Part shown: one piece after another, positions 3,005 through 32,267 of the stretch | Layout: every line of letters starts with the position of its first letter | Numbering within the stretch: the stretch's first letter is position 1 | NCBI GenBank assembly: GCA_002346305.1 | Contig: DDZI01000072.1 | Coordinates: forward strand, 4,217 to 36,728 | DNA: 32,512 bases | From: Actinobacteria bacterium UBA3012 | Lineage (GTDB): Bacteria; Actinomycetota; Actinomycetes; Nanopelagicales; Nanopelagicaceae | Direction of reading: 5' to 3' | Notes under the pieces: model-generated | Told to the model about the DNA's origin: nothing | Database searches by the model: none | The model's input: only the letters and a program-made list of their open reading frames with translations | Program-made: the position numbers and the translations under genes

Positions 3005-3006
3005 TC

Positions 3007-4550: not shown

Positions 4551-4585
4551 TTTAATTTTATAAATTGAAAAAAGGGGAGTAATAA

Positions 4586-5506: not shown

Positions 5507-5763
5507 AAATTTCACAAAGTAAAGCTTTTGTCTCCAAAATATCGATTCAGGGAGCGCAAATCGGGGGCGAAAATCCACTTCCGATTTTCAGAAATCAAAA
5601 TAGGGACCGCTCGGTAAAGTTTCTAAATGAGTTTTCTGCTGAACAAAGCAATTTAGTTGGATATGAAACTGGCGAAATCTATCCTCCACACCGTTGGCAA
5701 GACAGATACACCCGAGAATTAACTTCAACAGAAATCACCACAGTAGTTCTTGAAAATGAATAC

Positions 5764-9653: not shown

Positions 9654-10412
9654 TTATTTGGGAATCCGTAACCCTTGCATTCCGCCGTCGATACCCAATG
9701 CCGTTCCAGTAATTGCACTTTGCATTGGGCTGGCCAAAAATGCGATCGAACTGGCGATCTCTTCTGAGGTCACCAAACGACCAGAAGGTTGACGGGCTTC
9801 AAGACGTGCACGTTCTGCAACTGGATCGGCAGCTTGGGCAAGTAAACGTTGCACCCATGGAGTATCTGCAGTTCCTGGATTTACACAGTTGACGCGGATT
9901 TTGTCATTAATTAGATCGCAAGCCATCGCAAGAGTAAGAGTTAACACTGCACCTTTTGAGGCGCTGTAAATCGCCCGGTTTGGAATTCCCGCAGTAGCGG
10001 CGACTGAACACACATTTACTATTGCACCACTTTTACTTTTGCGCATTGAAGGTAGCGCAGTACGTGAAACGCGAGCTAATCCATAAACGTTGATGTTGAA
10101 GACTTTTTCCCAATTCGCGTCAGATTCACTTTCGATTGTTCCGATTGATCCGATTGCAGCATTGTTTATTAGTACGTCGATGACTGAAGTTTTCTTGGCA
10201 ACTTCGGCAAATGCTTTTTCTACAGAGGGGGTGTCACTAACGTCGCACTCAATCCAAGTTGCAACTCCGGTGGCTTCCATCTCACCCTTATTTAAATCAA
10301 GACCGTAGACAGTCGCGCCTCTAGTGTGAAGCAACGTTGCAGTAGCAAGTCCAATTCCCGATCCGGCTCCGGTAACAACTGCGGTCAATCCTTCAAACTC
10401 ACGTGCTGACAT
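9654..10412 (-). CDS. SDR oxidoreductase; by synteny a candidate 2-keto-3-deoxy-L-fuconate 4-dehydrogenase
   Basis: Contains TGAGSGIG, NNAA and YSASKGAV. It lies directly downstream of fucD, as in characterised L-fucose clusters. The substrate assignment is inference. Confidence 0.85.
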   Translation of the reverse strand: MSAREFEGLTAVVTGAGSGIGLATATLLHTRGATVYGLDLNKGEMEATGVATWIECDVSDTPSVEKAFAEVAKKTSVIDVLINNAAIGSIGTIESESDANWEKVFNINVYGLARVSRTALPSMRKSKSGAIVNVCSVAATAGIPNRAIYSASKGAVLTLTLAMACDLINDKIRVNCVNPGTADTPWVQRLLAQAADPVAERARLEARQPSGRLVTSEEIASSIAFLASPMQSAITGTALGIDGGMQGLRIPK

Positions 10413-10497: not shown

Positions 10498-11799
10498 TTA
10501 TACAAAATCTTTCCACTGTGGACCTGTTGGATAAGTGAAATCTACCAAACTGCTCTTGAGCATTTCAGCGCCAGCTCCTGGTTTTGAGGGTGGGAAGTAC
10601 CTTCCATTGCGCACATCTGTTGGAACGGACATATGTTCGTGGAGGTGATCCATATACTCAATGATTCGATCATCATGATGGCCAGAAACTGCCACTGCAT
10701 CGAACATCGCAAAATGTTGGACCATTTCACACAACCCAACTCCGCCTGCGTGAGGACATACTGGAATACTAAATTTTGCGGCCAATAAAACATTTGCCAC
10801 ATTCTCATTTACGCCACCCACTCGTGCTGAGTCGATCTGCATGTAAGACAAACCTTTTAATTGCAAGAATTGTTTAAACATAACTCGGTTTGCACAGGCT
10901 TCGCCGGTTGCAACTTTTACGGGAGCAATACCTTTTGCAATTGCAGCATGGCCTACTACGTCATCTGGATTTGTAGGTTCTTCAACCCAATGCAGATTTA
11001 CATCTCCCAGAGCATTAATCCAATCAATTGCTTCCTGCACATCCCAAACCTGGTTGGCATCAACTGCAAGTTTTACATTTGGACCAACCGCTTCACGAGC
11101 AAGTCTTAGTCGGCGTTTGTCATCTTCTAAGGATGCACCGCATTTCAATTTAATTAGCGTAAATCCATCTGCAACAGCCTCTTTTGCAAGATGTACCATT
11201 TTTTCATCGGTATAGCCAAGCCAACCTGGGGTAGTTGTATAGGCGGGCAATCCTTCAGCAAGCATCTTGGCTTCATTAGCTGCACGATTTGGTTGAACTT
11301 TTTTTAGCATCTCTAAAGCTTCAACGGGAGTTAGTGCATCAGTTAGGTAGCGCCAATCAACTAATTCAACGATCTCTTCAGGAGACATATCTGAAAGCAA
11401 TTTCCAAAGAGGCTTTCCAGCAATTTTAGAAATTAAATCCCAGACGGCAGTAAGAACTGCTCCTGTTGCCATATGGGTTACGCCTTTTTCAGGTCCAAGC
11501 CATCTCACTTGGCTATCTCGAACTAATTCTTGAGCAAGTGCACCCATTGATTTAGAGAGTTGACCAAGATCGCGGCCGACCAAGGTTTGTGCGATTAAAT
11601 CTATAGCGTCACATGCGAGATCGTTTCCACGTCCTAAAGTAAATACAAATCCATTTCCTTCTAGTCCTGGCGTATCTGTTTCTAATGTCAGATACGCCGC
11701 GGAATAATCAGGATCTTTATTCATTGCATCCGAACCATCTAATCCACGAGAAGTAGGAAAACGCACATCCAAAGTTTTAAATCCGGTGATCTTTGCCAT
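10498..11799 (-). CDS. fucD: L-fuconate dehydratase (enolase superfamily, MR subgroup)
   Basis: Near-colinear with the characterised Xanthomonas FucD as I recall it: LDVRFPTSRGLDGSDAMNKDPDYSAAY, RWLGPEKGV, PAYTTTPGWLGYTDEK, IKLKCG, AVDANQ, WVEEP, ATGE, QIDSARVGGVNE and PHAGGVGLCE. The start at 11799 (MAKITGF) aligns with FucD. An in-frame ATG at 11817 is the alternative. Confidence 0.9.
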   Translation of the reverse strand: MAKITGFKTLDVRFPTSRGLDGSDAMNKDPDYSAAYLTLETDTPGLEGNGFVFTLGRGNDLACDAIDLIAQTLVGRDLGQLSKSMGALAQELVRDSQVRWLGPEKGVTHMATGAVLTAVWDLISKIAGKPLWKLLSDMSPEEIVELVDWRYLTDALTPVEALEMLKKVQPNRAANEAKMLAEGLPAYTTTPGWLGYTDEKMVHLAKEAVADGFTLIKLKCGASLEDDKRRLRLAREAVGPNVKLAVDANQVWDVQEAIDWINALGDVNLHWVEEPTNPDDVVGHAAIAKGIAPVKVATGEACANRVMFKQFLQLKGLSYMQIDSARVGGVNENVANVLLAAKFSIPVCPHAGGVGLCEMVQHFAMFDAVAVSGHHDDRIIEYMDHLHEHMSVPTDVRNGRYFPPSKPGAGAEMLKSSLVDFTYPTGPQWKDFV

Positions 11800-11851
11800 T
11801 CGCTTACTTACTTCCATTCTTCAAATTGAATTAGTAGTTCGGGGAATTAAC

Positions 11852-12955
11852 TTAGCCTTTTAAGAACTTTGCCAACTCCTTAGGAGCGCCCTTTTCAGCC
11901 CACAAAGTTTCATAGCCAATACCAGGCCCCTTTGGAGCATGGAGCATGCCGTTTTTATCTATCGCCGGATCTTGAGCCAATTCAATATATGGATTGTCTT
12001 TGATCAAGGATTCGTAATAAGAGTTGTTTTTAATCGCCATACAAAGATGTGCTTGTTCCAAGCCCATTCCATGTACTTCGGCGCGAAGGTGGAAAGTGTC
12101 AGCCAAATGTGCGATACGCATGGCCCCAGTGAAGCCACCACGTAAAAATGTGGAAACGCGAAGTGCGCTTGCGACACCTGTTGCCACGAAATCTCCAGCG
12201 CTCATATGTGCACCCTCGGTTACTTCGCCAAGTAGTAATGGAATTCGTACTCGCTCACCTAGCCACTTGTAAGCAGTGACTGAAAACTCGCGCATTGGCT
12301 CTTCATACCAAAGGAAGTCAGCCTCATCTAATGCATGTCCAAGATAAACAGCATCCATCAAATCAAAACCAGCTGAACCGTCATACATAAGTGCGATATC
12401 CGGCCCAACATGTGCCCGAAGTTTTAGCGATAACTCTGCATCTTTTTTAGCATCACCAAAAGCATGCAACTTAATTGCTTTGTACCCACGGTCTATACAT
12501 TGTGATGCGATATCAAGAAACTCTGGAATTGATGAGTAGGTAACAGTTGATGCGTAAGCCGGAATGGACTCACGATACCCACCGAGCAATTTGTAAACTG
12601 GAAGATTTGCAGCTTTCGCAGCGATATCCCATAGGGCAACATCAATTACGTGTGCCATGTTTGGTGCAAATCTTTCAATGCGATCTAATTCCCAAACGCG
12701 CTCCCAAAGATGTTCGCGCATCAGTGGGTCTTGGCCAATCATTTCTGAACGGAAACGACGGTCAACATAATCTTTCAAAATCACACCACGTGCCGCAGTG
12801 GCAAAGCCAGTGATGCCAGCATCAGTTTCAATTACTAACCAGCCACCAACAGATGGCCCGTCAGACCCGGGAATATTCTTACGCCAAACAAATGGAGGAT
12901 TAACCGCTGGGCGATCTACCAAGATAACTTCGATATTTGTAATTTTCATTTTCAC
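11852..12955 (-). CDS. Mandelate racemase/muconate-lactonizing-enzyme family protein (enolase superfamily), substrate unknown
   Basis: AGGAG lies 5 nt upstream of ATG 12955. Capping domain LWDIAAKAANLPVYKLLGG. Metal-ligand contexts MYDGS, WYEEP and LLLGE. The strand-2 motif reads IKLH rather than KxK (by eye). Confidence 0.85.
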   Translation of the reverse strand: MKMKITNIEVILVDRPAVNPPFVWRKNIPGSDGPSVGGWLVIETDAGITGFATAARGVILKDYVDRRFRSEMIGQDPLMREHLWERVWELDRIERFAPNMAHVIDVALWDIAAKAANLPVYKLLGGYRESIPAYASTVTYSSIPEFLDIASQCIDRGYKAIKLHAFGDAKKDAELSLKLRAHVGPDIALMYDGSAGFDLMDAVYLGHALDEADFLWYEEPMREFSVTAYKWLGERVRIPLLLGEVTEGAHMSAGDFVATGVASALRVSTFLRGGFTGAMRIAHLADTFHLRAEVHGMGLEQAHLCMAIKNNSYYESLIKDNPYIELAQDPAIDKNGMLHAPKGPGIGYETLWAEKGAPKELAKFLKG

Positions 12956-13053: not shown

Positions 13054-13860
13054 CTACTCAGGCAGGCGAGAGAGTTTCCACTCTTCCAATTCAGCCAATC
13101 CTTCTTCACTGAGTGGATAGTATTTGCGTAACGCTCCACCTGCAGCCAGGCGAGCCCTACTGAATTCTTCGCTTCCCTCGTAACGTTCAGCAACGTCAAG
13201 AATAATCTCGGCTACATTTATTGGTACAACTACCGCTCCATCATCATCAGCGATAATGATGTCTCCTGGCATGACAAGAACTCCACCTACTGCAATCGGT
13301 ACAGCATATGCCCATGGATAAAGGGGACCTTGTGAAGCGAAGTTTGGAGTAGCACCTAACGTCCAAAGTGGGATCTCCATCTTCTGGATACGCGGCCAGT
13401 CACGGATATAACCATCCACAACTATTCCGACTCCGCCACGACCTGCAAATGAAGTCACCAACATCTCCCCAAGACATCCAGTGTGCTTATCTCCGTAAGC
13501 TTGGACCATCAGGAAATCATTTTTTTGAACATCATCGAGGACTGCCCAAAGAGCTGAGGTATTTTCACCCTCTTCTTGTACTTTTCCTGATGCGATATCT
13601 TCACGTTGTGGCATAAATTGCATGGTTAGCGCGCTACCTACTGCGTGCTGCCCTGTTTTCAACGGGCGAGGACCCGTGATGAAGGTATATCTGATTCCGA
13701 GCATATACATAAGTGCAGATGCAGTTGCTGTACTAACTACTTCTAGGCGTTTGATCATCTCTTCAGGGGCACGAGTGAATCCATGGCCAGTAATTGGCAA
13801 TTTCAGCCCCTTAGGTTTCTCAATCTTTAAGTTGTCATCAAAAAGCTTTGGCTTGGCCAT
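13054..13860 (-). CDS. RraA / HMG-CHA aldolase-like protein (class II pyruvate aldolase / oxaloacetate decarboxylase fold)
   Basis: GCLGEMLVTSFAGRGGVGIVVDGYIRDWPRI..IPLWTLGATPN...VPIAVGGVLVMPGDIIIADDDGAVVVP is the RraA-like signature. At 268 aa it has N- and C-terminal extensions relative to minimal RraA proteins. Confidence 0.8.
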   Translation of the reverse strand: MAKPKLFDDNLKIEKPKGLKLPITGHGFTRAPEEMIKRLEVVSTATASALMYMLGIRYTFITGPRPLKTGQHAVGSALTMQFMPQREDIASGKVQEEGENTSALWAVLDDVQKNDFLMVQAYGDKHTGCLGEMLVTSFAGRGGVGIVVDGYIRDWPRIQKMEIPLWTLGATPNFASQGPLYPWAYAVPIAVGGVLVMPGDIIIADDDGAVVVPINVAEIILDVAERYEGSEEFSRARLAAGGALRKYYPLSEEGLAELEEWKLSRLPE

Positions 13861-13890
13861 TTACTGCACCTTTCTGTTGATTGGGTTTAC

Positions 13891-15114: not shown

Positions 15115-15292
15115 TTTAGTGCCTTCCTAATATTTGCCTGGCAAGAATTACACATTTTTCTAATAAATCAAAAGTAAAACCCTATAGGATCAGTGACTAG
15201 CAGGCAAGGAAAAGGATTAACATTTTTATATCTTTTCTTAATAAAATAAGAGAAGTTTACTACTTGGCGCACGTCCGAATAGGTGGATATTT
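15115..15292. promoter_or_regulatory. AT-rich divergent control region between the minus-strand enolase/fucD operon and the plus-strand lactonase operon
   Basis: 178-nt gap between start codons at 15114 and 15293. Contains palindromes TTGCC-t-GGCAA (15134-15144) and CCTATAGG (15181-15188). GGCAAG is repeated at 15140 and 15203, and ACATTTTT at 15152 and 15220. Confidence 0.5.
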
Positions 15293-16141: not shown

Positions 16142-16186
16142 GGAACCCTGAAATCTCTCTCATTTCAAATAAATGAAAGGTAAGTC

Positions 16187-19130: not shown

Positions 19131-21833
19131 ATGAGCGCGCAGTTAATCCATCCATTTACTTTTGGGGATCGTACTCAATCTGATTTGCTGGGTGGAAAAG
19201 GCGCAAACCTTGCTGAAATGGTTCGGATGGGTTTGCCAGTGCCTCCGGGTTTCACGATTACAACCCAAGCATGTCGCGAATATTTAGCTTCAGGAAAAAT
19301 GCCTGCGGGACTAATCTCAGAAATCAATGATTCATTAAATGAGTTAGAAAAAAGTTTAGATAAAAAATTTGGCGATCCCACTAAACCATTACTCGTCTCT
19401 GTTCGTTCTGGGGCGAAATTTTCAATGCCTGGAATGATGGAAACTGTTCTTAATGTTGGAATGACCCCAGAAGTTGCCGAGGGTTTAGCAAAGATATCCG
19501 GAAATGAAAAATTCGCATGGGACTCTTATCGCCGCTTTATAGATATGTATGGGCGCATAGTTTGTGATGTTCCACCTGCAGAGTTTCATCAAATAGAAAA
19601 TCGAATTCTTGAGTCTCATTCTGTCAAAAATATTCAAGAATTAGATGTTGCTGGGCTACAAGCGTTGGCTGCCGCCTTTATTAAAGAAATTGAGATTGTT
19701 ACAGGCAAGCCATTTCCAACTGATCCACGTGAGCATTTGATTAGTTCAGTAGAGGCTGTCTTTCATTCATGGAACTCTGAGCGTGCTCAACTTTACCGTC
19801 GTCGCGAGCGTATCTCTTCAGATCTTGGGACTGCAGTAAATATTCAATCAATGGTTTTTGGAAACTTAAGTGATGACTCTGGAACGGGCGTTGCTTTTAC
19901 TCGCGATCCTGCATCTGGTGAAGTCGGAAGTTACGGTGATTACTTAGACCGTGCGCAAGGTGAGGATGTTGTTGCTGGAATCCGTAACACCATGTCGCTC
20001 GAGGATATGGCGAAAAAAGAACCAGTCGTTCACGCCGAACTTGAAAAAGTTATGGGTTTACTTGAAGACCATTATCGAGACCTGTGTGATATTGAATTTA
20101 CAGTTGAGCGTGGAAAGTTATGGATTCTACAAACTCGCGTTGGTAAGCGAACTGCTGAAGCCGCATTCCGTATTGCGACTCAATTAGTTGATGAAGGCAA
20201 GATCACCATGGATGAGGCGCTATCTCGCACATCTGGTGATCAATTAGTCCAATTGATGTTTCCGCAGTTTGATTTGAGTGGTTCTATCAAGGAGATTGCG
20301 CGTGGAATTCCAGCCTCTCCGGGTGCTGCAGTGGGAGAAGTTGTTTTTGATTCTCGCCGAGCGTTTGATTTGGCTAGAAGCGGCAAAAAAGTGATTTTAG
20401 TAAGACGAGAAACCAGCCCTGATGATTTAGTAGGAATGGTGGCAGCAGAAGGAATTTTGACCAGCCGCGGAGGTAAAACTTCACACGCAGCTGTAGTCGC
20501 ACGCGGAATGGGTAAGACTGCCGTTTGCGGTACTGAAAGCATTTCAGTCGATGAACGTGCATCCCTTTTTACTGTTGGAAGCCTCACCGTTTATGAAGGT
20601 GAAACAATTTCAATTGATGGCACTACAGGAGCGGTTTACACTGGAGTCATTCCAGTTATTGCATCACCAGTAACGGCTTACTTAGAAGGTCGTTTGTCTG
20701 CAGGAGCCGACGAAGCATCACCAGTTGTTAAAGCAGTTGATCGGATTTTGAAACATGCTGATCAAATCCGAGCCTTACGAGTTAGGGCAAATGCCGATAC
20801 TCCAGAAGACGCAGTACGCGCGCGAATTCTTGGTGCAGAAGGTGTTGGCTTATGTCGCACGGAGCATATGTTCTTAGGCCCTCGTCGCATTTTTGTTGAG
20901 CGATTAGTTTTAGCAGAAAATGAAGATGTGCAACGTGGTGTAATCGCTGAGATGGAACCGCTTCAACGCGCTGATTTTGTCGGCATCATGATGGCGATGT
21001 CTGGATTACCAGTAACTATTCGCTTATTAGATCCACCGCTTCACGAGTTCTTGCCAGATTTAGCTTCTCTTACCGGAGAGATGGCACGTGCTGAAGCACT
21101 CGGCACTGAAGTTTCTACTAGAGATCAAGCAATTTTTGCTGCGGTAAGACGTTTGCATGAATCGAATCCAATGTTAGGTCTACGTGGTGTTCGTCTCGGA
21201 ATTTTAATTCCAGAGTTGTTTAAAATGCAGGTTCGTGCACTTGTCCACGCTTGTCTTGAAGTTAAACAACTTGGTCATAATCCAAAACCAGAGATAATGA
21301 TTCCATTGGTAGCCACCCAACGTGAACTTCTGTATTTGCGCGAAACACTAGAGGTTGAAATCGCCGAAACTCTTAAAGGCACTGGCCAGCAGATAGATAT
21401 TCCAATTGGAACCATGATTGAAACACCTAGAGCTGCTATTACGGCAACTCGATTGGGAGATTACGCGGATTTCTTCTCATTCGGAACTAACGATCTAACT
21501 CAATTAACTTGGGCGTTTAGTCGTGATGATGTGGAATCTACCTTCTTGCCAAGGTATCTAGATCTTGAATTATTGCCATTTAATCCATTTGAATCTCTTG
21601 ATCAAGATGGAGTTGGCCTTCTGGTCAAGATTGCAACAGAACAAGCGCGAGCATTACGACCTGATTTCAAATTAGGTGTGTGTGGTGAGCATGGTGGCGA
21701 TCCAAGAAGTATTCACTTCTTCCACGGTTTAGGTTTAGATTATGTATCTTGCTCACCATTCCGAGTTCCGGTTGCAAGATTGGAATCGGGTCGTGCACAA
21801 GTAATTAGTTCTTCAACTTCAAGCACCGCTTGA
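19131..21833 (+). CDS. ppdK: Pyruvate, phosphate dikinase
   Basis: Contains GGKGANLAEM, the phospho-His loop TSRGGKTSHAAVVARGMGK, GLCRTEHMF, FFSFGTNDLTQ and VSCSPFRVPVARL. Length is 900 aa and AAGGGAG RBS precedes the start. Confidence 0.97.
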   Translation: MSAQLIHPFTFGDRTQSDLLGGKGANLAEMVRMGLPVPPGFTITTQACREYLASGKMPAGLISEINDSLNELEKSLDKKFGDPTKPLLVSVRSGAKFSMPGMMETVLNVGMTPEVAEGLAKISGNEKFAWDSYRRFIDMYGRIVCDVPPAEFHQIENRILESHSVKNIQELDVAGLQALAAAFIKEIEIVTGKPFPTDPREHLISSVEAVFHSWNSERAQLYRRRERISSDLGTAVNIQSMVFGNLSDDSGTGVAFTRDPASGEVGSYGDYLDRAQGEDVVAGIRNTMSLEDMAKKEPVVHAELEKVMGLLEDHYRDLCDIEFTVERGKLWILQTRVGKRTAEAAFRIATQLVDEGKITMDEALSRTSGDQLVQLMFPQFDLSGSIKEIARGIPASPGAAVGEVVFDSRRAFDLARSGKKVILVRRETSPDDLVGMVAAEGILTSRGGKTSHAAVVARGMGKTAVCGTESISVDERASLFTVGSLTVYEGETISIDGTTGAVYTGVIPVIASPVTAYLEGRLSAGADEASPVVKAVDRILKHADQIRALRVRANADTPEDAVRARILGAEGVGLCRTEHMFLGPRRIFVERLVLAENEDVQRGVIAEMEPLQRADFVGIMMAMSGLPVTIRLLDPPLHEFLPDLASLTGEMARAEALGTEVSTRDQAIFAAVRRLHESNPMLGLRGVRLGILIPELFKMQVRALVHACLEVKQLGHNPKPEIMIPLVATQRELLYLRETLEVEIAETLKGTGQQIDIPIGTMIETPRAAITATRLGDYADFFSFGTNDLTQLTWAFSRDDVESTFLPRYLDLELLPFNPFESLDQDGVGLLVKIATEQARALRPDFKLGVCGEHGGDPRSIHFFHGLGLDYVSCSPFRVPVARLESGRAQVISSSTSSTA

Positions 21834-21865: not shown

Positions 21866-22849
21866 ATGCCACGCCATAGTGAGTTAGTAAAGATTGAAAG
21901 AACTGGTCTTGAAGTAACTAAACTTTCATTAGGTACAGCCCCACTTGGTGGATTATTTACCTCAGTTCCAGAAGCCGATTCTGACGGTGTGATTGCCGCG
22001 GCATTTGCTGCAGATATTAATTTTTTTGATACCGCACCGCTTTACGGTTCGGGACGCTCAGAGGTTCGCTTAGGCCGTGGTTTGAATGCAGCAAAGCGTC
22101 CCTATGTTCTATCCACCAAAGTCGGACGCGTTTTAAATCCAGTTTCTGGTGTTTCAAATGCTGGTGGCTTAGCAGGCTTTGCTGATGCGGATACTTCTGT
22201 AGAGCCAGTATTTGATTACTCAAGAGCTGGAGTTCGTAGATCATTTGAGGAGAGCTTAAAGCGATTAAATGTAGACAGAATTGATGTTGCATTAATTCAT
22301 GATGCAGATGATCGAATTGAAGAAGCAATCAAGTACGCATACCCCGCACTAGAAGAAATGCGCGCAGAGGGCATGGTCAGTACCATCGGAGTCGGAATGA
22401 ATTACTGTCCACCAACGATTAAAGCTGTTGTTGAAACTGACATTGACATAGTTTTAATAGCTGGACGTTACTCGTTGCTTGATCAGTCATCACAGGACCA
22501 ACTATTCAAAGAGACAATGAAACGAAAAGTTTCAGTAATGATTGGTGGAGTTTACAACTCGGGAATTTTGGCTAATCCAGTGGCTGGTGCCACTTATTTC
22601 TATGCACCTGCTTCAGATGAGGTTATTGCCAAAGCCCAAAAGATCAGAGATTTACTGGCAACTTTTAATGTCTCTCTAACTGCCGCAGCTATCCAATTTC
22701 CACTACGCCACCCAGCGGTCACGACCGTTCTTACTGGTTCGCGCAGTTCAAAAGAGCTACTTGCAAATATCGCTGATTTTGATTCAGAAGTACCAGCCGA
22801 GGCTTGGGAAGCACTAGAGAAGGCCGGATTAATCCCACCTATTGACTGA
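21866..22849 (+). CDS. Aldo/keto reductase, D-threo-aldose (L-fucose) 1-dehydrogenase-like
   Basis: GLEVTKLSLGTAPLGGLF, FFDTAPLYGSGRSEVRLGRGL and VLSTKVGR match the AKR subgroup that includes L-fucose/D-arabinose dehydrogenases. Substrate specificity is inferred. Confidence 0.88.
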   Translation: MPRHSELVKIERTGLEVTKLSLGTAPLGGLFTSVPEADSDGVIAAAFAADINFFDTAPLYGSGRSEVRLGRGLNAAKRPYVLSTKVGRVLNPVSGVSNAGGLAGFADADTSVEPVFDYSRAGVRRSFEESLKRLNVDRIDVALIHDADDRIEEAIKYAYPALEEMRAEGMVSTIGVGMNYCPPTIKAVVETDIDIVLIAGRYSLLDQSSQDQLFKETMKRKVSVMIGGVYNSGILANPVAGATYFYAPASDEVIAKAQKIRDLLATFNVSLTAAAIQFPLRHPAVTTVLTGSRSSKELLANIADFDSEVPAEAWEALEKAGLIPPID

Positions 22850-22876: not shown

Positions 22877-24010
22877 ATGTCTAGCGAGGTCAGATTAACG
22901 GGGATGACTTGGGAGCATGTTCGCGGACATGGCTGTTTAGTTGCTTCAGGTCCTTTTTTGCAGAGTCACCTTGGCATAACCGTAGATTGGACCGCGCGAT
23001 CCTTACTGGCTTTTGGTGATCAGAAAATTGAGGAGTTCTACCAAGATTTCGATTTAATGGTGATTGATTATCCACATATTCCAGATGCGGTTGCTGCAGG
23101 AACAGTTTTACCTTTTGAAGATTTTGTATCAGCAGCAGATTTAGATCAACTTGCTCAAGAAAGCGTCGGCGGATCTCATCACTCTTATTTATTTAGAAAT
23201 AAACATTGGGCTTTGGCATTAGATGCCGCATCACAAGTAAGTGCTTACCGTCCTGATCGAGCAGATAGCGCTCCTCTAACTTGGGATGATGCGAAAGAGA
23301 TTGGCAAAGCGGGTAAATTGCTGTGGCCCTACAAGCCGGTCGATGCTTTTAGTACCTTTGCAACTTTATGCGCGCAATTAGGTGCACCTCTTGCTGGCAG
23401 TAAAAATTTCATTGATAACCAGATCGCAGCGCAAGCGTTAGATCTAATGATTGAATTTACACACCTCGTTCCAGATTTTTGTGCGACCTTTAATCCGATT
23501 GACACCGCAGAAGCGCTCGCCGATGATGGACCTTTTAGTCATGCAATCGCACTTTATGGTTATACAAATTACGGAAGAGTCGGATTCCGCAAAAATTTAC
23601 TTTCTTACGATGATATTCCATCATTTGACGGACAGTCTAGTGGCGCCTGTTTAGGTGGCACTGGAATCGCTGTTTCGAGTGCAACAAAAAATCCTGAAGC
23701 AGCATTCAAAGCAGCGCTGACTTTAGCCAAAGGAGATGTGCAGTCCACTGTTTACACGAAAGCTGGTGGACAGCCAGGAAATTTAAGGGCTTGGAAGAGC
23801 CGTGAATGTAATGAGATAACAAATTACTTCTTTAGAAACACATTAAGAACTCTTGAGCGAGCATGGATAAGACCACATGTGATTGGTTGGCCTGATATTC
23901 AAATGGAAATTTCGAAGATTGTTCACCCTTCTTTAGTAGCAAAGAAATTAACCGGAAAGGAAGTTGGTTTAATTGCTGAACTTTATGACCGACATGCGGT
24001 GATCGAATGA
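22877..24010 (+). CDS. Solute-binding-protein-fold (SBP family 1-like) protein lacking any signal peptide or lipobox
   Basis: SBP-like landmarks: [51 protein letters not shown] and [14 protein letters not shown]. The N-terminus [17 protein letters not shown] has no hydrophobic h-region, and the in-frame upstream sequence is closed. ATGA overlap with the downstream MaoC gene. Confidence 0.65.
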
Positions 24011-24435
24011 AATTCTCAGAGTATGAAATCGGATCGACTCGTAAAAGTTTCTCTCGAACAATCACAGAAGCCGACATCGTTACTCACGCTGGCCAAACTG
24101 GTGATTTCTACCCTCATCATATGGATGCCGAATGGTGTGCGACCCAACCTTTTGGAAAGCGAATGGCTCATGGAACATTAATTCTTTCCGTAGGAATTGG
24201 AATGATGGCCGGTGAAATAAATCCAGAAGCCATGAGTTACGGATATGAAAAAGTTAGATTTATAAAGCCGGTATTTATTGGAGACACCATCACCGTAACT
24301 TCTGAAATTATTGGCTCTCGTGATCACCCAAAGAAAAATGATCAATTTGGTTTTATTGACGAAAAAGTGACAATTACTAATCAAAAAAACGAAGTAGTGC
24401 TCTCACTATTTAAAATCTACATAGTAAACCGATGA
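24007..24435 (+). CDS. MaoC-like (R)-specific enoyl-CoA hydratase/dehydratase, hot-dog fold
   Basis: Hydratase-2 motif context [17 protein letters not shown], with Asp and the +5 His present, followed by GKRMAHG. Length 142 aa. Confidence 0.85.
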
Positions 24436-24454
24436 CCGCAGAGAGGAAAAGAAA

Positions 24455-25300
24455 ATGAGTAGCAATTCACAAATGATCGATACACATCAGCATCTTTGGA
24501 TTATTAGTGAAAGAGAGTATTCCTGGCTCAAGCCAGAGTACGGTGTAATTTACGACGATTTTGGACCTGAATTAATAGAGCCACAACTTGCCCCGGCTGG
24601 TGTAACTGGAACAGTCATGGTCCAATCCGCCGACACATATGCAGATACGTTCTACATGCTAGATGTTGCCGCAAAACATAAATTTGTTAAAGGAGTAGTT
24701 GGTTGGGTTCCACTAAACCGTCCTGATGAAGCTAGCGCCGCTCTAGATGTATTAGTTAAGAATCCGGTCTTTAAAGGGGTGCGAAATTTAATTCATGATT
24801 ACCCGGATCCGAAGTGGATATTAAAGCCAGAGGTTCTCGAGGGTATTGGACATCTTGCTTCACGTAATTTGGTTATGGATTTTGTTACTGTCAATACTTA
24901 TCATATGTCTTGCCTTCCAGTAATTGCTGAAAAGTATCCAAATCTAAAAATAGTGATTGACCATCTTTCAAAACCAGGAATTAAAAACAAGGAATGGGAG
25001 CCATGGGCTAGTGATATGGCGAAGGCCGCAAAGTATCCAAATATTTATGCAAAAATTTCAGGATTAAATACTGCTTCTGACTCCAATTGGTCATTTAAAG
25101 ATTGGATTCCATATGTGGATCATGTAGTTTCAATATTTGGCTCTAACCGAGTCATGCTTGGTGGGGATTGGCCAGTGATTTTACTAGCCAACGACTATAA
25201 AACTGTATGGAAAGCACAACAAGATGTAATTGCGCATCTTTCGCAAGATCAACAAGATGACATTAAATATCGCACAGCAACAAAGTTCTACTCACTCTAA
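24455..25300 (+). CDS. Amidohydrolase_2 (COG3618-type) lactonase, second paralogue; candidate L-rhamnono-/aldono-lactonase
   Basis: Contains IDTHQHLW, VIDHLSKPG and MLGGDWPV. GAGAGGAAAAG RBS. Adjacent to rhaM. Confidence 0.85.
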   Translation: MSSNSQMIDTHQHLWIISEREYSWLKPEYGVIYDDFGPELIEPQLAPAGVTGTVMVQSADTYADTFYMLDVAAKHKFVKGVVGWVPLNRPDEASAALDVLVKNPVFKGVRNLIHDYPDPKWILKPEVLEGIGHLASRNLVMDFVTVNTYHMSCLPVIAEKYPNLKIVIDHLSKPGIKNKEWEPWASDMAKAAKYPNIYAKISGLNTASDSNWSFKDWIPYVDHVVSIFGSNRVMLGGDWPVILLANDYKTVWKAQQDVIAHLSQDQQDDIKYRTATKFYSL

Positions 25301-25323
25301 TCGTTATATGAAAGGGAATTAAT

Positions 25324-25647
25324 ATGAAACGTTACGGATCAGTTATTGGAATTCCAAAAGCAGATTGGGCAGAGTACGAGCGTTATCACGCAGATGTATG
25401 GCCAGAGGTCCTAAAAACTATCTACGATTGCAATATTAGAAATTACTCAATTTATCGTTATGGTGAATTGCTTTTCTCATACTTCGAATATATTGGTTCC
25501 GATTTTGAGGCAGATAGTGCAAAAATGGCTGAGGATCCTAAGACTCAAGAGTGGTGGGATGTAATGAAGCCAATGCAACGTCCAGTTGCTGAATGCTCTG
25601 GAGACGAATGGTGGCATTCAATACCTGAGGTTTTTCACGTCGATTAA
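25324..25647 (+). CDS. rhaM: L-rhamnose mutarotase
   Basis: 107 aa, MKRYGSVIGIPKADWAEYERYHADVWPEVLKTIYDCNIRNYSIYRYGELLFSYFEY...WWDVMKPMQ...EVFHVD, the RhaM (DUF718) pattern. Confidence 0.9.
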   Translation: MKRYGSVIGIPKADWAEYERYHADVWPEVLKTIYDCNIRNYSIYRYGELLFSYFEYIGSDFEADSAKMAEDPKTQEWWDVMKPMQRPVAECSGDEWWHSIPEVFHVD

Positions 25648-25677
25648 TTCATAGAATTTCAATTTGAAGGGTGATCG

Positions 25678-26856
25678 ATGTCGCAACGAATTGCAAGGCC
25701 AGAACTTCCGCTGGATGGAATTTTAGTTCTTGATTTCAGCCAATTTTTAGCTGGCCCAGTTTCAGCTATGCGCCTTGCAGATTTAGGTGCCCGGGTAATA
25801 AAAATCGAACGCCCAGGTACCGGCGATATTGGCAGAACGTTGGCTTTCGCTGGAATTGCAAGCGATGGTGACACTCTCTCTTTTCACATAATGAATCGCA
25901 ATAAGGAAAGTTTTGCTGCCGATTTGAAAAATGAAAATGATAAAAAAGATGTACTTGAGTTGATCAAAAAAGCAGATGTAATAATTCAGAATTTTCGCCC
26001 AGGGGTGATGGAGCGGCTAGGTTTTGGATACGAGGCTGTAAAAGCGATAAATCCAAAGATAATTTACGCCAGCGCAACAGGGTATGGCGAAAAGGGTCCT
26101 TGGAAAGATCGCCCCGGTCAAGATCTACTAGCTCAATCTATTACTGGATTTCCTTGGTTGAACGGCAGCAAGAATGAACCCCCAATTCCAGTAGGAATTG
26201 CCATAGCGGACATTCTTACCTCGATTCACATTGCCCACGGAGTGACCGCATTGTTGTTACGTCGCGAGCGCACTGGAATCGGTGGTTTTGTGGATACCAG
26301 TTTGGCTGAATCAATGCTTGACTTACAATTTGAGTTACTGAGTGCGCACGCTTTTGATGATCAATTGCGAGTTAATCGTGGACCTCGAAATGCTGCACAT
26401 GCATTTTTGCCAGCACCATATGGAATATATCCAACCGCAGATGGATACCTAGCCATTGCAATGACACCGATAAATTCTTTAGGTGAACTAATTGGTCTCG
26501 AATCTATTGCATCATTTACAAATCCTGAGGATTGGTGGAGTCATCAAGAAGAAATCACTCAGGCACTTTCCAAATATCTAGCAACCCAGAAAACTGAGCA
26601 CTGGCTAAATATTCTCGATGCAGCGGATGTGTGGTGTGCACCAGTGCTTACCCTTCCTGAGTTAGTTGAACATGATGGCTTTGCACAACTTGAAATGATG
26701 CAGGAAACAGTTCGTGGCGAGGATGACGAGATTAAAATCAAAACAACTAGATCTCCAATGCGCCTAGACGGAAAAACATTGAAAAATCGCAAAGGCGCAC
26801 CAAGAGTTGGCGAAGATACTGAAAAGATTCGCATTGAATTCCTAGGAGGAATGTAA
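25678..26856 (+). CDS. Family III CoA-transferase (CaiB/BaiF family)
   Basis: [39 protein letters not shown] is the family N-terminal signature. Also [16 protein letters not shown] and [19 protein letters not shown]. Confidence 0.9.
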
Positions 26857-27380
26857 TGAAAAATCCAAATCATGATGTCGCAAAACGTTTGCAGGTTCCA
26901 GTATGGAATCAAGATAATAAATATTATGAAGATTACCAAGTAGGAGAAGTGGATCGCTCAATCAGGAGAACAATTTCCGAGGGCGAGATGATGCTCTTCA
27001 ACTGCTTGCTACTAGATATGCATCCATATGTGGGGGATGAGATATTTGCTACAAAAGAGGGAATGTTTGGCAAAAGAATTGTTCCGGGTGCTCTCGTTTT
27101 CTCTTTCGGTATGGGATTAATGGCACATAACAACACCCAGACTTTTAGCTACGGATATGATCGACTTAGATTTATCAAACCAGTCTTTGTCAATGACACG
27201 ATTTACACAATGCGAACATTGCTCGAAAAAACTCCCAAGTATGAGGAGTTAGGTTTATTTAGAGTTAGTTATGAAGTATTTCGCGCTGATGATGAAGAGT
27301 TAGTTCTCTACTGTGAACACCTTCAGACAGTGAAGTATCGTGATCCGGTTAAAGCACGTGCCAATATTGGAAAAGAGTAA
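26856..27380 (+). CDS. MaoC-like hot-dog protein with a degenerate hydratase motif
   Basis: TAATG overlap with the CoA-transferase. The motif region reads [15 protein letters not shown]: Asp is kept, the +5 position is Val not His, and a His sits at +2. It is followed by GKRIVPG instead of ..AHG. Confidence 0.8.
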
Positions 27381-27382
27381 CA

Positions 27383-28459
27383 ATGATTGATTTATTCAAA
27401 GAGGTTTCAGAGTTTGCAAAACTTGAAATACCAGAATCAATTAAGTTGCCGATTGCGATTGTTGGCGCTGGAGGAATTGTTGATGGCGCACACCTTCCTG
27501 CTTATAAAAAAGCAGGATTAGAAATCGTAGGTATTACAGATGTTGATCAAGACAGAGCTAAAGATGTAGCGAGCCGACACGACATATCAGTTGTTTATCC
27601 AGATTTAGCTACTATGTTGCGAGACAGCAAAGCAAAAGTGATTGATATTGCTGTTCCGCCAGCTGTTCAGCGAGATGTATTTATCGAAGTAGCGAAAAGT
27701 GGTCGGCACATTCTGGCTCAAAAACCCTTAGCAACAACTGTTGCCGATGGCGAATTGATAATTAAAGCGGCAAAAGAATCAGGGATTATTGCAGGAGTAA
27801 ATCAACAGTTGCGTTTTGAAGAAGGTATTGCTGCCGCATATAAAATGGTAGATCTAGGTTGGATTGGAAAAGTAACGTCGATATCTATCACGGTAAATCT
27901 TGCAACACCTTGGGAGATGTTTCCTTGGGCAAAAAATATGGAAAAGCTAGAAATCATGGTTCATTCAATTCATTATCACGATGTAATTCGCTGGTTTCTA
28001 GGCGATCCAATTTCGGTTTATTCATTAGCAGGGCGAACCAAGGGTCAATTCCCAATCGGAGAAACTAGAACTGTCAGTACCTATAAATATCCTGACGAGG
28101 TGAGTGCAATAGTTCATGCAAATCACGTCAACCGTGGTGGAGATAACTATGCAGAATTTAGAATTGATGGAGACAGTGGTTCAATCAGAGGAACCCTTGG
28201 TTTGTTGTATGACTACCCAACGGGTCGAGTCGATACCCTAGAAGTTAACTCATCAAAATTACCAACCGATGGTTGGACACCATATCCGGTTACTACTCGT
28301 TGGTTCCCGGATGCATTCATAGGGACCATGGGCTCTCTTCTTGGAGCGATTGCAGGCAAGCATCCTCTTCGTTCAAGCGTTGAGGAAAACCTTGGAACTC
28401 TAAAACTAGTTGCGGCTTTATATGAATCGATCGCAAATAATCGGGTAGTTGAACTCTAA
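27383..28459 (+). CDS. Gfo/Idh/MocA-family NAD(P)-dependent oxidoreductase (candidate sugar 1-dehydrogenase)
   Basis: Rossmann N-terminus IAIVGAGGIVDGAHLPAYKK and an EKP-like motif ILAQKPLA. Starts 2 nt after the upstream stop. Confidence 0.9.
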   Translation: MIDLFKEVSEFAKLEIPESIKLPIAIVGAGGIVDGAHLPAYKKAGLEIVGITDVDQDRAKDVASRHDISVVYPDLATMLRDSKAKVIDIAVPPAVQRDVFIEVAKSGRHILAQKPLATTVADGELIIKAAKESGIIAGVNQQLRFEEGIAAAYKMVDLGWIGKVTSISITVNLATPWEMFPWAKNMEKLEIMVHSIHYHDVIRWFLGDPISVYSLAGRTKGQFPIGETRTVSTYKYPDEVSAIVHANHVNRGGDNYAEFRIDGDSGSIRGTLGLLYDYPTGRVDTLEVNSSKLPTDGWTPYPVTTRWFPDAFIGTMGSLLGAIAGKHPLRSSVEENLGTLKLVAALYESIANNRVVEL

Positions 28460-28462
28460 TTT

Positions 28463-29479
28463 ATGACAAAACTAGTAGATGTCGCTAACGCCGCTGAGGT
28501 TTCTATCTCTATCGTTTCTAGAATATTGAATGAAGACCCATCGTTACGCGTAGCAGCCAAAACTCGCGAGCGAGTTTTATTCGCAGCGAGGGAACTCAGG
28601 TACCAGCCAAATCACGCAGCGCGGGCATTACGCTTATCAAAAAATAGCGCGATTGCACTACTCACGCCAGATTATGCAAACTCTATTTTTAGTGAAATTG
28701 CACAAGGAGTTGAAGAGCAAGCGAGACTTCTTGACCTATCAGTCTTAATAAATCGGGCAAGTGAAATTGAGGATGCCGATACTTGGCTCAGAAGAATAGT
28801 TGCCGAAAGAAGAGCTGATGGAATTTTACTTCAAGCTCCAGATGGAATCACTAAGGAAGGTTTATCGAAATTAACATCTGGGACACTTCCCATTGTTCTC
28901 ATAAATTCTCGAGATGATTCAGATACGTCTCAGATTATTTTTGATGATGCAGGTGCCGTTGAATTAGCATTAGAACACCTCTTTTCTTTGGGACATAAAA
29001 AGATTGGGTTTCTTGGAGGTGAATTAAGCAGTCCAACTGGTGCGCGTCGATTAGCTGGTTTTGTATCCGGGATGCAGCGAAAGAAATTAGAAGTAAATTC
29101 AGAATGGGTCACAAGAATTGGGTATACGGGAGTTGATGGCAGAAAGGCCGTTTCGCAAATTCTTGACCAACCAAACCGACCAACTGCCTTGATTGTTGCA
29201 AACGCTAACGCAGCCCTTGGAGCATTGGCTCAGATACATACCCTGGGATTGCGGGTACCCGAAGAAATTTCACTTGTCTCAATCCATGATATTTGGTTTG
29301 CCGATGCCACTTGGCCCCCGATAACTGCAGTGAAGATGCCAAATTACGAGATGGGTAAAGTGGCAATAGGGATGTTGCTCAAACAGATGGAAACCGGTGT
29401 TATTGAAAAAAACATTTTGACAGAGCCTCCAAATCAATTGGTTGTGCGTTCATCTACCGCCAAACCACCGATAGGCTAA
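28463..29479 (+). CDS. LacI-family transcriptional regulator
   Basis: HTH LVDVANAAEVSISIVSRILN, hinge YQPNHAARALR, and a periplasmic-binding-fold effector domain. Confidence 0.92.
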   Translation: MTKLVDVANAAEVSISIVSRILNEDPSLRVAAKTRERVLFAARELRYQPNHAARALRLSKNSAIALLTPDYANSIFSEIAQGVEEQARLLDLSVLINRASEIEDADTWLRRIVAERRADGILLQAPDGITKEGLSKLTSGTLPIVLINSRDDSDTSQIIFDDAGAVELALEHLFSLGHKKIGFLGGELSSPTGARRLAGFVSGMQRKKLEVNSEWVTRIGYTGVDGRKAVSQILDQPNRPTALIVANANAALGALAQIHTLGLRVPEEISLVSIHDIWFADATWPPITAVKMPNYEMGKVAIGMLLKQMETGVIEKNILTEPPNQLVVRSSTAKPPIG

Positions 29480-30362: not shown

Positions 30363-30364
30363 CT

Positions 30365-31286: not shown

Positions 31287-32138
31287 CTAGCGCTTAAATG
31301 CGACAGTTTTTGAGGTGATACTTCCGATTCCTTCAATCCCAGTTTCTACTACTGAGCCAGCTTTTAGGTATTTCGGAGGATTGAAGCCCATTCCAACACC
31401 TTCAGGAGTTCCACTGTTGATGATATCTCCAGCTTTGAGCTCCATGAATTGGCTCAAGTACCAAACGATGTGATCAATTCCAAATACTAAATCGCTAGTG
31501 CGAGAGTCTTGGCGCTTCTCACCATCAACAGAGCACCATAAGCGAACATCATGGGGATTGTAAGAATCTGAAGTTACAGCCACGGGTCCGATTGGATTAA
31601 AAGTAGGGAATGATTTTCCTTTTACCCATTGACCACTACGTTCAATCTGCCAGTGGCGTTCGCTAACATCTTGGCTGATTGAGTAAGCGGCGATGTAATT
31701 TTTGGAATCCTCAGGGGATTCTAAGTAAAGCGCAGTTTTGCCAATGATAATTGCGAGTTCAACCTCATAATCAGTTTTCTCGCTATTTGGTGGAATTACT
31801 AGGTCATCAAATCCACCGACACAAGTATCGGCAGCTTTCATAAAAACTACAGGCTCTGGAGCAACTGCCATCCCAGATTCTTTGGCATGTTTGGCGTAGT
31901 TCAGACCGATGCAAATAATTTTTGTTGGTCTGGCGACTGGTGAGCCGATTCGGTAATCAGCGACCTTCACTTTAGGAAGTGCGCTCAAATCCGCTGCTTG
32001 GACTTTCGCGATCGCACCATTTTCTAGTTCGCTGCGATTCCAATCCTTGATTAGGTGATCTACAAAGACCGCTTCGGTTTCGGAGACCATAACTGCTGGT
32101 TTTTCGGCTTCAAAAGCACCAAGGCGAGCAAATTTCAT
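31287..32138 (-). CDS. Fumarylacetoacetate hydrolase (FAH) family protein; candidate 2,4-diketo-3-deoxy-L-fuconate/rhamnonate hydrolase
   Basis: Contains KIICIGLNYAKHAKESG, DYEVELAIIIGK and GDIINSGTPEGVG. ATG 32138 (MKFARLG) is the preferred start. The track start at 32168 lacks an RBS. Confidence 0.88.
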   Translation of the reverse strand: MKFARLGAFEAEKPAVMVSETEAVFVDHLIKDWNRSELENGAIAKVQAADLSALPKVKVADYRIGSPVARPTKIICIGLNYAKHAKESGMAVAPEPVVFMKAADTCVGGFDDLVIPPNSEKTDYEVELAIIIGKTALYLESPEDSKNYIAAYSISQDVSERHWQIERSGQWVKGKSFPTFNPIGPVAVTSDSYNPHDVRLWCSVDGEKRQDSRTSDLVFGIDHIVWYLSQFMELKAGDIINSGTPEGVGMGFNPPKYLKAGSVVETGIEGIGSITSKTVAFKR

Positions 32139-32267
32139 GGGAATTTCCAACTTCCTGAGACGTGACATATCGGAGATATGTTCAGATATCCGGCTATCGT
32201 ATAGGGTTCCAATCGGATTGTTAAGTTATTCTTCGTACCAATCACTTTGGGTCAATTTGGGGGAACC
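32139..32267. promoter_or_regulatory. Divergent promoter region between the FAH hydrolase and the IlvD/Edd dehydratase
   Basis: Non-coding gap between divergent starts. Contains a direct repeat AGATAT-N5-AGATAT (32174-32190) and an 11-bp palindrome CAATC-g-GATTG (32210-32220). Confidence 0.35.

Follow-up and report, generated by a model that had tools for sequence, protein, structure and literature searches.

Here we describe a stretch of 32,512 nucleotides (nt), referred to as the window, from contig DDZI01000072.1 (forward strand, positions 4,217 to 36,728) of Actinobacteria bacterium UBA3012 (GCA_002346305.1), in which seven co-directional genes (22877-28459) encode, in order, a protein resembling a substrate-binding protein (the SBP-like protein), a MaoC-type hot-dog protein (MaoC1), an amidohydrolase that is a putative aldonolactonase (hereafter the lactonase), a RhaM-family mutarotase, a family III (CaiB/BaiF) coenzyme A (CoA)-transferase, a second hot-dog protein (MaoC2) and a Gfo/Idh/MocA dehydrogenase (Gfo). 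The window is a Candidatus Nanopelagicaceae (acI) sequence, its nearest genomic relatives being metagenome-assembled genomes of that name with 93-97% protein identity. The SBP-like protein, the transferase, MaoC1 and MaoC2, which we call the module, are kept together in Actinomycetota, Alphaproteobacteria and soil metagenome contigs, and in all three settings they are linked to genes of fucose-type sugar oxidation. We tentatively read the run as the core of an oxidative L-fucose-type island in which the four proteins would form a CoA-cycling hydro-lyase, similar in logic to the CaiB/CaiD carnitine system, that acts on a sugar-derived hydroxy acid; we give this reading somewhat less than an even chance.

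Conservation of the Module Across Phyla

Loci were compared by tblastn with a reference panel of window proteins, scoring genes within 10 kb and retaining loci with at least 7 kilobases (kb) of sequence on both sides (31 Actinomycetota loci and 19 soil loci). The genes recur jointly in about 50 such well-flanked loci from three phylum-level groups, and the arrangement is therefore far beyond chance. All four module genes were found together in 30 of the 31 Actinomycetota loci and 16 of the 19 soil loci. Every Actinomycetota locus had the SBP-like protein, MaoC1, the lactonase, the transferase and Gfo, and 30 had MaoC2, an RraA-like gene and RhaM. A second acid-sugar dehydratase of the enolase superfamily (Enol367, 62-81% identity) was present in 29, as were ABC permeases, followed by an aldo/keto reductase (26/31), an FAH-family hydrolase (23/31), a 2-hydroxy-acid dehydrogenase dependent on flavin mononucleotide (FMN; 23/31), L-fuconate dehydratase (FucD; 22/31) and an SDR (20/31). 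A pattern scan of species-representative genomes located relatives in 377 genomes of Nanopelagicales and Microbacteriaceae, including cultured Rhodoglobus aureus JCM 12762 as well as strains IMCC26103 and IMCC26077.

In Alphaproteobacteria, MaoC2, the transferase and the SBP-like gene are consecutive on a Roseibium aggregatum plasmid, next to genes for an amidohydrolase, an IclR regulator and a sugar ABC transporter of four genes, which are followed by those for an enolase-superfamily protein, RhaM, Gfo, MaoC1, an SDR, L-fuconate dehydratase and an FAH hydrolase, at 37% to 63% identity to the window proteins. On pSymB of Sinorhizobium meliloti, the transferase/SBP-like pair, at 731,300-733,582, lies about 9 kb from a homologous fucose-type cluster comprising a sugar ABC transporter, RhaM, Gfo, MaoC1, an SDR and an FAH hydrolase; the ABC genes by that cluster we take to be those of the L-fucose transporter in the Fitness Browser. 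The S. meliloti MaoC2 homologue directly follows a DctP-type TRAP operon (locus L171, 5860-9480), about 480 kb from the transferase/SBP-like pair, which hints at an imported carboxylate as a further input to the module.

A soil metagenome scan anchored on MaoC2 yielded 80 contigs. These have no taxonomy of their own; one related cluster representative is named Bryobacterales by NCBI, and the contigs are probably from Acidobacteriota. The recurrent order is FAH, Gfo, FucD, RhaM, lactonase, transferase, IclR, MaoC1, SBP-like, MaoC2, RraA-like and SAF + GD_AH, the last, of altronate-dehydratase type, standing in place of Enol367. Among the 19 well-flanked soil loci, the transferase was present in 19, the SBP-like protein in 18, MaoC1 and Gfo in 16 each, the lactonase and RhaM in 14 each, the RraA-like gene and FucD in 13 each, GD_AH in 12 and the FAH hydrolase in 10. 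Fucosidases are encoded near the module on single contigs (GH95 in L087, a GH29 alpha-L-fucosidase in L088). Six soil loci and L088 are minimal clusters, in which the module is accompanied by a RhaT-type transporter and Gfo, sometimes one further dehydrogenase (SDR), and glycosidases nearby, with no conventional acid-sugar dehydratase or lactonase within 10 kb; Gfo is the only constant extra enzyme.

Gene order is permuted among the three groups, yet neighboring genes often overlap by 1-4 nt. This holds for SBP-like/MaoC1 and transferase/MaoC2 in the window, for transferase/SBP-like in Roseibium and S. meliloti (4 nt in each) and for SBP-like/transferase/MaoC2 in L088. A first-pass annotation of the window, made from its sequence alone, had proposed that this quartet and the sugar-oxidation genes belong together, and the synteny upholds them as a linked unit in all three groups. 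It had also named a setting that would make the adjacency incidental, namely the quartet beside citramalyl-/malyl-CoA lyase or other organic-acid genes and away from sugar genes; no such locus was found, and the adjacency is therefore taken as a conserved functional association. HpcH/CitE CoA-ester lyases were lacking in L001-L004, L087-L089, the Roseibium and S. meliloti regions and the top 30 soil gene clusters. The earlier remark that the lyase partner of organic-acid pathways is absent needs a qualification, since a lyase-class protein, the RraA-like class II aldolase, is encoded in 30 of 31 relatives and at 13054-13860 of the window.

These findings bear on the idea that the module serves an organic-acid pathway of its own, be it one of the itaconate/mesaconate type or one for an imported (hydroxy)dicarboxylate or aldarate, and is merely co-regulated or co-located with the sugar genes, which we regard as improbable. 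The TRAP transporter ahead of MaoC2 in S. meliloti would suit such a pathway, as would the aldarate or carboxylated substrates within the Enol367, GD_AH and RraA-like families, the succinyl-CoA:mesaconate CoA-transferase model as the best for the transferase and the weak RipB/Ich scores of the MaoC proteins. Against it, an HpcH/CitE-type lyase occurs in none of the annotated loci, the linkage to RhaM, Gfo and the lactonase spans three phylum-level groups, the minimal clusters carry sugar transporters and glycosidases rather than organic-acid genes, and every equivalog score is far under its cut-off.

Layout of the Gene Run and Assignment of Its Enzymes

The SBP-like/MaoC1 junction reads ATGA (4-nt overlap) and the transferase/MaoC2 junction TAATG (1-nt overlap); the other gaps, in order along the run and up to the LacI-family gene that follows it, are 19, 23, 30, 2 and 3 nt. 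These junctions, the coordinates given beforehand by the first-pass annotation and all of its domain calls were borne out by the list of open reading frames (ORFs), the sequence and Pfam (Table 1). A promoter/terminator scan gave fewer sites than in shuffled sequence and was uninformative on operon limits. A LacI gene after Gfo is also seen in Microbacteriaceae loci.

None of the proteins of the run reached an NCBIfam equivalog cut-off, so for all of them family membership is established by sequence and specific function is not. For the lactonase, the best NCBIfam model is L-fucono-1,5-lactonase (154 bits, cut-off 400), and lactonase models gave 154 and 194 bits on window proteins against that same cut-off of 400; RhaM scored 43 bits with TIGR02625 (cut-off 99.6). 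The nearest solved structures to Gfo, PmdC among them, match by sequence at no more than 63 bits, and since all are this distant, the Gfo substrate is not inferable from structures.

The transferase covers PF02515 profile positions 1-366 of 366, and in alignments with YfdE (4hl6) and formyl-CoA transferase (Frc), the catalytic Asp of those enzymes is matched by the Asp of RPGQDLLAQ. It falls in none of the characterized equivalogs compared, with scores far under the cut-offs for the mesaconate enzyme Mct (210 bits, cut-off 700), the succinate-glutarate enzyme (209, cut-off 750), YfdE (202, cut-off 522), Frc (189, cut-off 504) and CaiB (90, cut-off 413). Its nearest characterized relatives, at scores far under their cut-offs, are mesaconate, glutarate, oxalate and hydroxymethylglutarate enzymes.

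MaoC1 has a complete Asp/His hydratase motif (D-x4-H), with both residues conserved in all aligned homologues. It shares this motif with PDB 4ffu (147 bits), an S. meliloti protein with no assigned function, whose gene lies between those of Gfo and the SDR in the pSymB cluster. In S. meliloti R14 (L170, 40259-40721), the 4ffu gene appears as an unannotated 110-aa ORF that begins at an internal Met and may be frameshifted in the assembly. MaoC2 carries the motif LDMHPYVGD (LDMHPYV[AG]D, invariant across homologues), which retains the Asp and has Val at the position of the canonical His. Conservation within the cluster is highest for this protein (65-85% identity across phyla), which also has a conserved N-terminal extension. 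An AlphaFold2 (AF2) monomer model of MaoC2 shows the hot-dog fold with a low-confidence active-site overhang (residues 53-77), and its Foldseek matches are 4ffu, 1q6w, PaaZ and PhaJ, with HadAB chains also present. By analogy, MaoC2 may resemble the non-catalytic partner of heteromeric hot-dog dehydratases. The retention of the catalytic Asp in the transferase and of Asp and His in MaoC1 supports the prediction that both are competent enzymes.

The best NCBIfam match of both MaoC proteins is the C-terminal domain of PaaZ (80 and 60 bits). The RipB/Ich model gave 38 and 30 bits (cut-off 340) and methylfumaryl-CoA hydratase 17 bits (cut-off 560). We also considered MaoC1/MaoC2 as a split mesaconyl-CoA hydratase, which is unsupported, as MaoC1 fits both halves of 8hgn alike (26.6 and 23.7 bits).

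A Leaderless Protein With a Binding-Protein Fold

The SBP-like protein has no NCBIfam hit. Its AF2 model (pLDDT 93.9) has MalE3 and SmoF as top Foldseek matches (TM-score about 0.8), and the predicted structure can confidently be described as a complete MalE-type, two-lobe type II binding-protein fold. The protein of the window begins 10 residues ahead of the first conserved strand and has no signal peptide. Likewise, homologues in all three groups start 4-10 residues before the invariant TW.H.RG strand, with no hydrophobic leader. More than 650 homologues, all of about 375 aa, were found in a protein collection, and an exhaustive profile search gave at least 534 clusters at 50% identity (E ≤1e-30), nearly all of 370-400 aa, with matches that start at their first residues and no fusion to a further domain; the protein is thus leaderless in more than 500 clusters. 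Among 150 representatives, the match begins at residues 1-10.

An ordinary exported binding protein with a mis-called start codon or signal peptide is hardly credible in light of this: although the fold is that of MalE and many sources label the protein "sugar ABC transporter substrate-binding protein," the short leaderless start recurs in three groups and throughout the 150 representatives of 370-400 aa, the gene overlaps MaoC and CoA-transferase genes and not permease genes, and the ABC operon of relatives has an unrelated binding protein of its own. The suggestion that the SBP-like protein might be a paralogue of that binding protein was rejected, as the two sequences are without similarity. 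The earlier view of a cytosolic protein rather than a transporter's binding protein therefore holds up, given the absence of a leader in all groups and the dissimilarity to the relatives' ABC binding protein. The accompanying statement that no transporter lies near the gene is correct for the window, where Pfam annotation of the ORFs revealed no permease or ATPase gene, and does not extend to its relatives, in which the ABC transporter with its separate binding protein lies about 5 kb upstream.

Ten SBP-like sequences from three phyla, at 30-37% identity, share 53 invariant columns, which are rich in Arg, Trp and Tyr and include TW.H.RG, LGG.G, GGQP and RPR; R41 and R125 are also invariant. 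Such invariance is more in keeping with an enzyme subunit or obligate partner than with a transport receptor. No Rosetta-stone fusion to the transferase or to MaoC was found in the 150 best representatives, the longest being 430 aa. A second, different leaderless SBP-like family (399-417 aa; N-terminus FRIA[IV]R[RK]F.PFES) follows MaoC2 in some soil clusters (L088, 10516-11715; L101, 3404-4657; also L091 and L125).

Sugar Pathway Context

The sequence context is of the oxidative, non-phosphorylative L-fucose (6-deoxy-hexose) type, because FucD of the window matches 1yey at 570 bits and GH29 or GH95 fucosidases accompany the module in some loci. Sugar oxidation had been recognized in the first-pass annotation, with deoxy sugars and pentoses as candidates; the first part stands, and FucD and the fucosidases narrow the second to the L-fucose type. 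A different substrate class would follow if Gfo, the Amidohydro_2 protein and the RraA-like protein were counterparts of LigC, LigI/LigJ and LigK in the degradation of a pyrone or lactone from aromatic or humic material. This is very improbable: the family make-up does match the lower protocatechuate 4,5-cleavage pathway, the 268-aa RraA-like protein of the window (RraA268) scores 101 bits with the LigK model, PmdC is among the Gfo matches and a LigB-family gene lies near the module of L004, but the neighbors are RhaM, sugar ABC or RhaT transporters, FucD and GH29/GH95, the best lactonase model is L-fucono-1,5-lactonase and all Lig-type scores are under cut-off.

The known oxidative L-fucose route proceeds through a mutarotase, 1-dehydrogenase, lactonase, dehydratase, 4-dehydrogenase and hydrolase. 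It can be built from the neighboring genes without the module, and the module must therefore add a reaction. Neither of the two L-fucose degradation routes characterized to date has a CoA step (July 2026 review). In most loci, one to three conventional acid-sugar dehydratases (FucD with Enol367, or FucD with SAF/GD_AH) stand beside the module, and the proposal that it is a plain alternative to enolase/IlvD dehydratases for L-fuconate is contradicted by their coexistence. Replacement of the conventional dehydratase by the module was rejected overall, as none of the 31 Actinomycetota loci is without one; it holds in 6 of the 19 soil loci and L088.

A Possible CoA-Cycling Mechanism

In the mechanism we propose, the transferase would load CoA onto a hydroxy acid derived from the sugar, for which the best candidate is the 6-deoxy-aldonate (or its lactone) made by the adjacent Gfo-family dehydrogenase. 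MaoC1 as the catalytic subunit and MaoC2 as its non-canonical partner would remove or add water next to the thioester, and the transferase would then hand the CoA to the next substrate molecule, making the use of CoA catalytic. The SBP-fold protein would hold the sugar-derived ligand for the transferase. Gene identities, catalytic residues, the leaderless SBP fold and the linkage to fucose-type genes across phyla are what the analysis shows; we infer, beyond these, that the four proteins probably work as a complex, that a CoA ester forms, which acid is the substrate and in which direction the reaction runs. The CaiB/CaiD-type cycling logic is suggested because a family III transferase occurs with a hydratase and without a ligase or lyase, and a 6-deoxy-aldonate or its lactone is favored as CoA acceptor because the minimal clusters put the module straight after the Gfo step. 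A further-reaching claim, namely that the transferase, a heteromeric hot-dog dehydratase and a cytosolic SBP-fold subunit bring a CoA-thioester step into oxidative sugar catabolism as a new class of CoA-dependent hydro-lyase for 6-deoxy-aldonates, is more doubtful; in that version the complex might accept the aldonolactone itself and conserve its energy as a thioester.

Several observations weigh against this mechanism. CoA-dependent dehydration of L-fuconate itself would be redundant, because most loci have conventional dehydratases. Dehydration of a 2,3-dihydroxyacyl-CoA would lead to a 2-oxoacyl-CoA, an unusual, labile thioester for which we know of no precedent. No enzyme that would supply a CoA donor was found in the clusters, MaoC2 is without the canonical catalytic His, the S. 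meliloti genes are scattered, with MaoC2 behind the operon of an organic-acid (TRAP) transporter, and the nearest characterized relatives of the transferase work on dicarboxylates. Furthermore, the CoA ester of a sugar acid is itself something we infer from sequence. The target may be another stereoisomer, such as one derived from L-rhamnose, L-galactose or 6-deoxy-L-talose, and the chemistry may be epimerization or ring opening and not net dehydration.

One unlikely alternative is that the module acts not on a C6 aldonate but on a small end-product acid, such as L-glycerate from L-galactose, glycolate from D-arabinose, L-lactate or another 3-hydroxy acid; L-glycerate, for example, could be converted via glyceryl-CoA and an enoyl/2-oxo thioester to pyruvate. 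An FAH hydrolase and an FMN-dependent lactate-type dehydrogenase in the cluster are in keeping with this, as are the small-acid substrates of the nearest transferases and the fact that the canonical pathway (Gfo, lactonase, dehydratase, SDR and FAH) is complete without the module in Roseibium and S. meliloti. On the other hand, the minimal clusters consist of module, transporter and Gfo, with neither an FAH hydrolase nor an aldolase, and circumstantially favor the aldonate-level version over one acting on a product acid; a terminal C2/C3-acid role, or a separate dicarboxylate role, is possible and fits them less well. Dehydration of lactoyl-CoA, moreover, requires radical enzymes and is beyond a hot-dog hydratase, and acI loci already have the FMN dehydrogenase to deal with L-lactate.

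Slightly less probable than a small-acid substrate is a role of the CoA ester as a handle or activator of the alpha-proton in chemistry other than dehydration, for instance C2/C3 epimerization of an aldonate by dehydration and rehydration, which would feed non-cognate 6-deoxy-aldonates into the FucD route, or ring-opening hydrolysis as by the hot-dog domain of PaaZ. Such a role would explain why conventional dehydratases stand beside the module; it would agree with the PaaZ C-terminal domain as best NCBIfam match of both MaoC proteins (80 and 60 bits), with the constant presence of two different hot-dog paralogues and with the racemases that share the family III fold and appear among the PDB matches of the transferase. 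However, the transferase retains the Asp typical of transferases, its best alignments are to true transferases, no sequence feature points to an epimerase, and the idea is conjectural. CoA-cycling removal or addition of water on a sugar-derived hydroxy acid is our preferred reading of the module.

The Surrounding Island

The whole window is a sugar-acid island (Table 1). Pyruvate phosphate dikinase, 32 nt upstream of the aldo/keto reductase and in a position that is kept in many acI loci, is probably encoded by the first gene of the run's transcription unit, and its place inside a catabolic cluster suggests that pyruvate from the pathway is channeled to phosphoenolpyruvate. On the minus strand upstream, a GntR regulator and, after the RraA-like gene, a third enolase-superfamily protein are also encoded, and the SDR adjoining FucD is conserved at 57-67% in other loci. 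The plus strand upstream additionally encodes a second cog3618 amidohydrolase, a 680-aa protein and a RhaM-like 223-aa protein; two FAH-family proteins and a 2-hydroxy-acid dehydrogenase are encoded downstream of the run.

Table 1. Gene run and further features of the window (coordinates in nt; scores in bits).
Feature	Coordinates	Strand	Details
SBP-like protein (leaderless MalE fold), module core	22877..24010	+	377 aa; Pfam SBP_bac_1 33 bits (weak)
MaoC1	24007..24435	+	142 aa; Pfam MaoC_dehydratas 77 bits
Amidohydro_2 (cog3618-type), putative aldonolactonase	24455..25300	+	Pfam 141 bits
RhaM-family mutarotase	25324..25647	+	Pfam rhaM 106 bits
Family III (CaiB/BaiF) CoA-transferase, module core	25678..26856	+	PF02515 (CoA_transf_3) 342 bits
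MaoC2, hot-dog paralogue	26856..27380	+	174 aa; Pfam MaoC 48 bits
Gfo/Idh/MocA dehydrogenase	27383..28459	+	Pfam GFO_IDH_MocA 74 bits
LacI-family regulator	28463..29479	+	Pfam LacI + Peripla_BP_3
Aldo/keto reductase, candidate aldose 1-dehydrogenase	21866..22849	+	Pfam Aldo_ket_red 138 bits; 27 nt upstream of SBP-like gene
Pyruvate phosphate dikinase	19131..21833	+	Pfam PPDK_N, PEP-utilizers, PEP-utilizers_C
L-fuconate dehydratase (FucD)	10498..11817	-	570 bits, E 4e-170, to PDB 1yey/2hxt (Xanthomonas enzyme structures)
Second enolase-superfamily acid-sugar dehydratase (Enol367)	11852..12955	-	Best PDB match 1rvk/4hcd, 174 bits
RraA-like class II aldolase/decarboxylase family	13054..13860	-	268 aa; Pfam RraA-like 105 bits; NF006093 240 bits
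SDR, candidate 2-keto-3-deoxy-L-fuconate 4-dehydrogenase (function from context)	9654..10412	-	Pfam adh_short_C2 195 bits
FAH-family hydrolase, candidate 2,4-diketo-3-deoxy-fuconate/rhamnonate hydrolase	31287..32168	-	NF053535 248 bits, cut-off 500
FMN-dependent 2-hydroxy-acid dehydrogenase, L-lactate dehydrogenase/oxidase type	7568..8824	+	Pfam FMN_dh 423 bits

The segment from 13054 to 18900 is replaced in most relatives (L001-L004) by the ABC transporter, comprising a 435-441 aa binding protein without a Pfam hit and two permeases, and a relative with 96% identity (L006) lacks it entirely, which marks it as a variable insert of the island. The RraA-like gene of this segment differs from a 214-aa RraA-like gene that most relatives carry between MaoC1 and the lactonase, a position at which the window's sublineage has none. 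The gene of the 680-aa protein (16187-18229) overlaps by 1 nt that of the 223-aa protein (18229-18900), which is RhaM-like in its C-terminal half. The 680-aa protein had no match in Pfam, NCBIfam or PDB-sequence searches; its homologues (30-33% identity) adjoin the module in at least eight other loci, and it may represent a new family of sugar-active enzymes.

At 559-7536 lies a separate sugar-acid set, with an SMP-30 lactonase, a PfkB kinase, a KDPG aldolase, two SDRs, a 306-aa protein (weak Peptidase_U32 hit) and a 590-aa DUF5107+TPR protein. After LacI, the window's own sublineage has an atypical FAH-family protein (Pfam 55 bits; weak GguC/AraD1 hit) and a D-2-hydroxy-acid dehydrogenase (29502-31267), where an SDR is found in other acI lineages.

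Comparison With Known Systems

The module was not described in the full-text literature searched (subscription journals lay outside its coverage), in the GapMind paper, in a 2017 genomic reconstruction or in the 2026 fucose review. Its presence inside fucose-type clusters suggests that a reaction or branch is missing from a well-studied pathway, in settings that include acI, which is among the most abundant freshwater lineages, the genetically tractable S. meliloti and soil metagenomes. Should the proposed mechanism be true, a CoA-dependent acid-sugar hydro-lyase would be widespread in freshwater acI Actinobacteria, rhizobia and soil Acidobacteria. Likewise, the module suggests that a large family of cytosolic "binding proteins," whose members are routinely mis-annotated as ABC transporter components, was recruited to enzyme function; this family has its fold in common with ABC binding proteins of the MalE type and is without their export signal and permease coupling.

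The oxidative L-fucose pathway of the Xanthomonas, Burkholderia and Campylobacter type resembles the island in its FucD, putative cog3618 lactonase, RhaM-like mutarotase, SDR and FAH-family hydrolase and in the UxaA-type dehydratase of the soil loci, exactly the steps listed for it (2026 review). In contrast to the island, the known route includes no CoA step, hot-dog protein or cytosolic SBP-fold protein. The itaconate (Ict/Ich/Ccl) and mesaconate (Mct/Mch/Mcl) pathways likewise pair a family III transferase with a MaoC-type hydratase, and in the case of mesaconate the top-scoring transferase model is Mct and the PDB matches include mesaconyl-CoA hydratase structures; however, the module loci are without an HpcH/CitE lyase, the equivalog scores are sub-cut-off and the neighbors are mutarotase, lactonase, FucD and fucosidases.

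HadAB and HadBC act on long acyl-ACP (acyl carrier protein) substrates in mycolic acid synthesis and are encoded by two adjacent genes. Like MaoC1 and MaoC2, they combine a subunit bearing Asp and His with a His-less paralogue, which shapes the substrate site, whereas the MaoC genes of the module are separated and coupled to the SBP-like and transferase genes. The MaoC1 orthologue 4ffu ("putative MaoC-like protein, similar to NodN") is a structural-genomics entry.

In the CaiB/CaiD carnitine system, a family III CoA-transferase and a hydratase achieve net dehydration of a free hydroxy acid by CoA cycling, and in 2-hydroxyacyl-CoA dehydratase systems CoA is likewise cycled between substrate and product. 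The module would share with CaiB/CaiD the coupling of a family III transferase to a hydratase/dehydratase, the absence of a ligase or CoA-ester lyase and the catalytic use of CoA. It differs in having a hot-dog (MaoC) pair in place of the crotonase-fold CaiD, in a transferase that stays far from the CaiB equivalog and in its sugar-oxidation context and additional SBP-fold protein. The novelty of the module lies in its sugar context, in its split hot-dog pair and in a cytosolic partner with the SBP fold.

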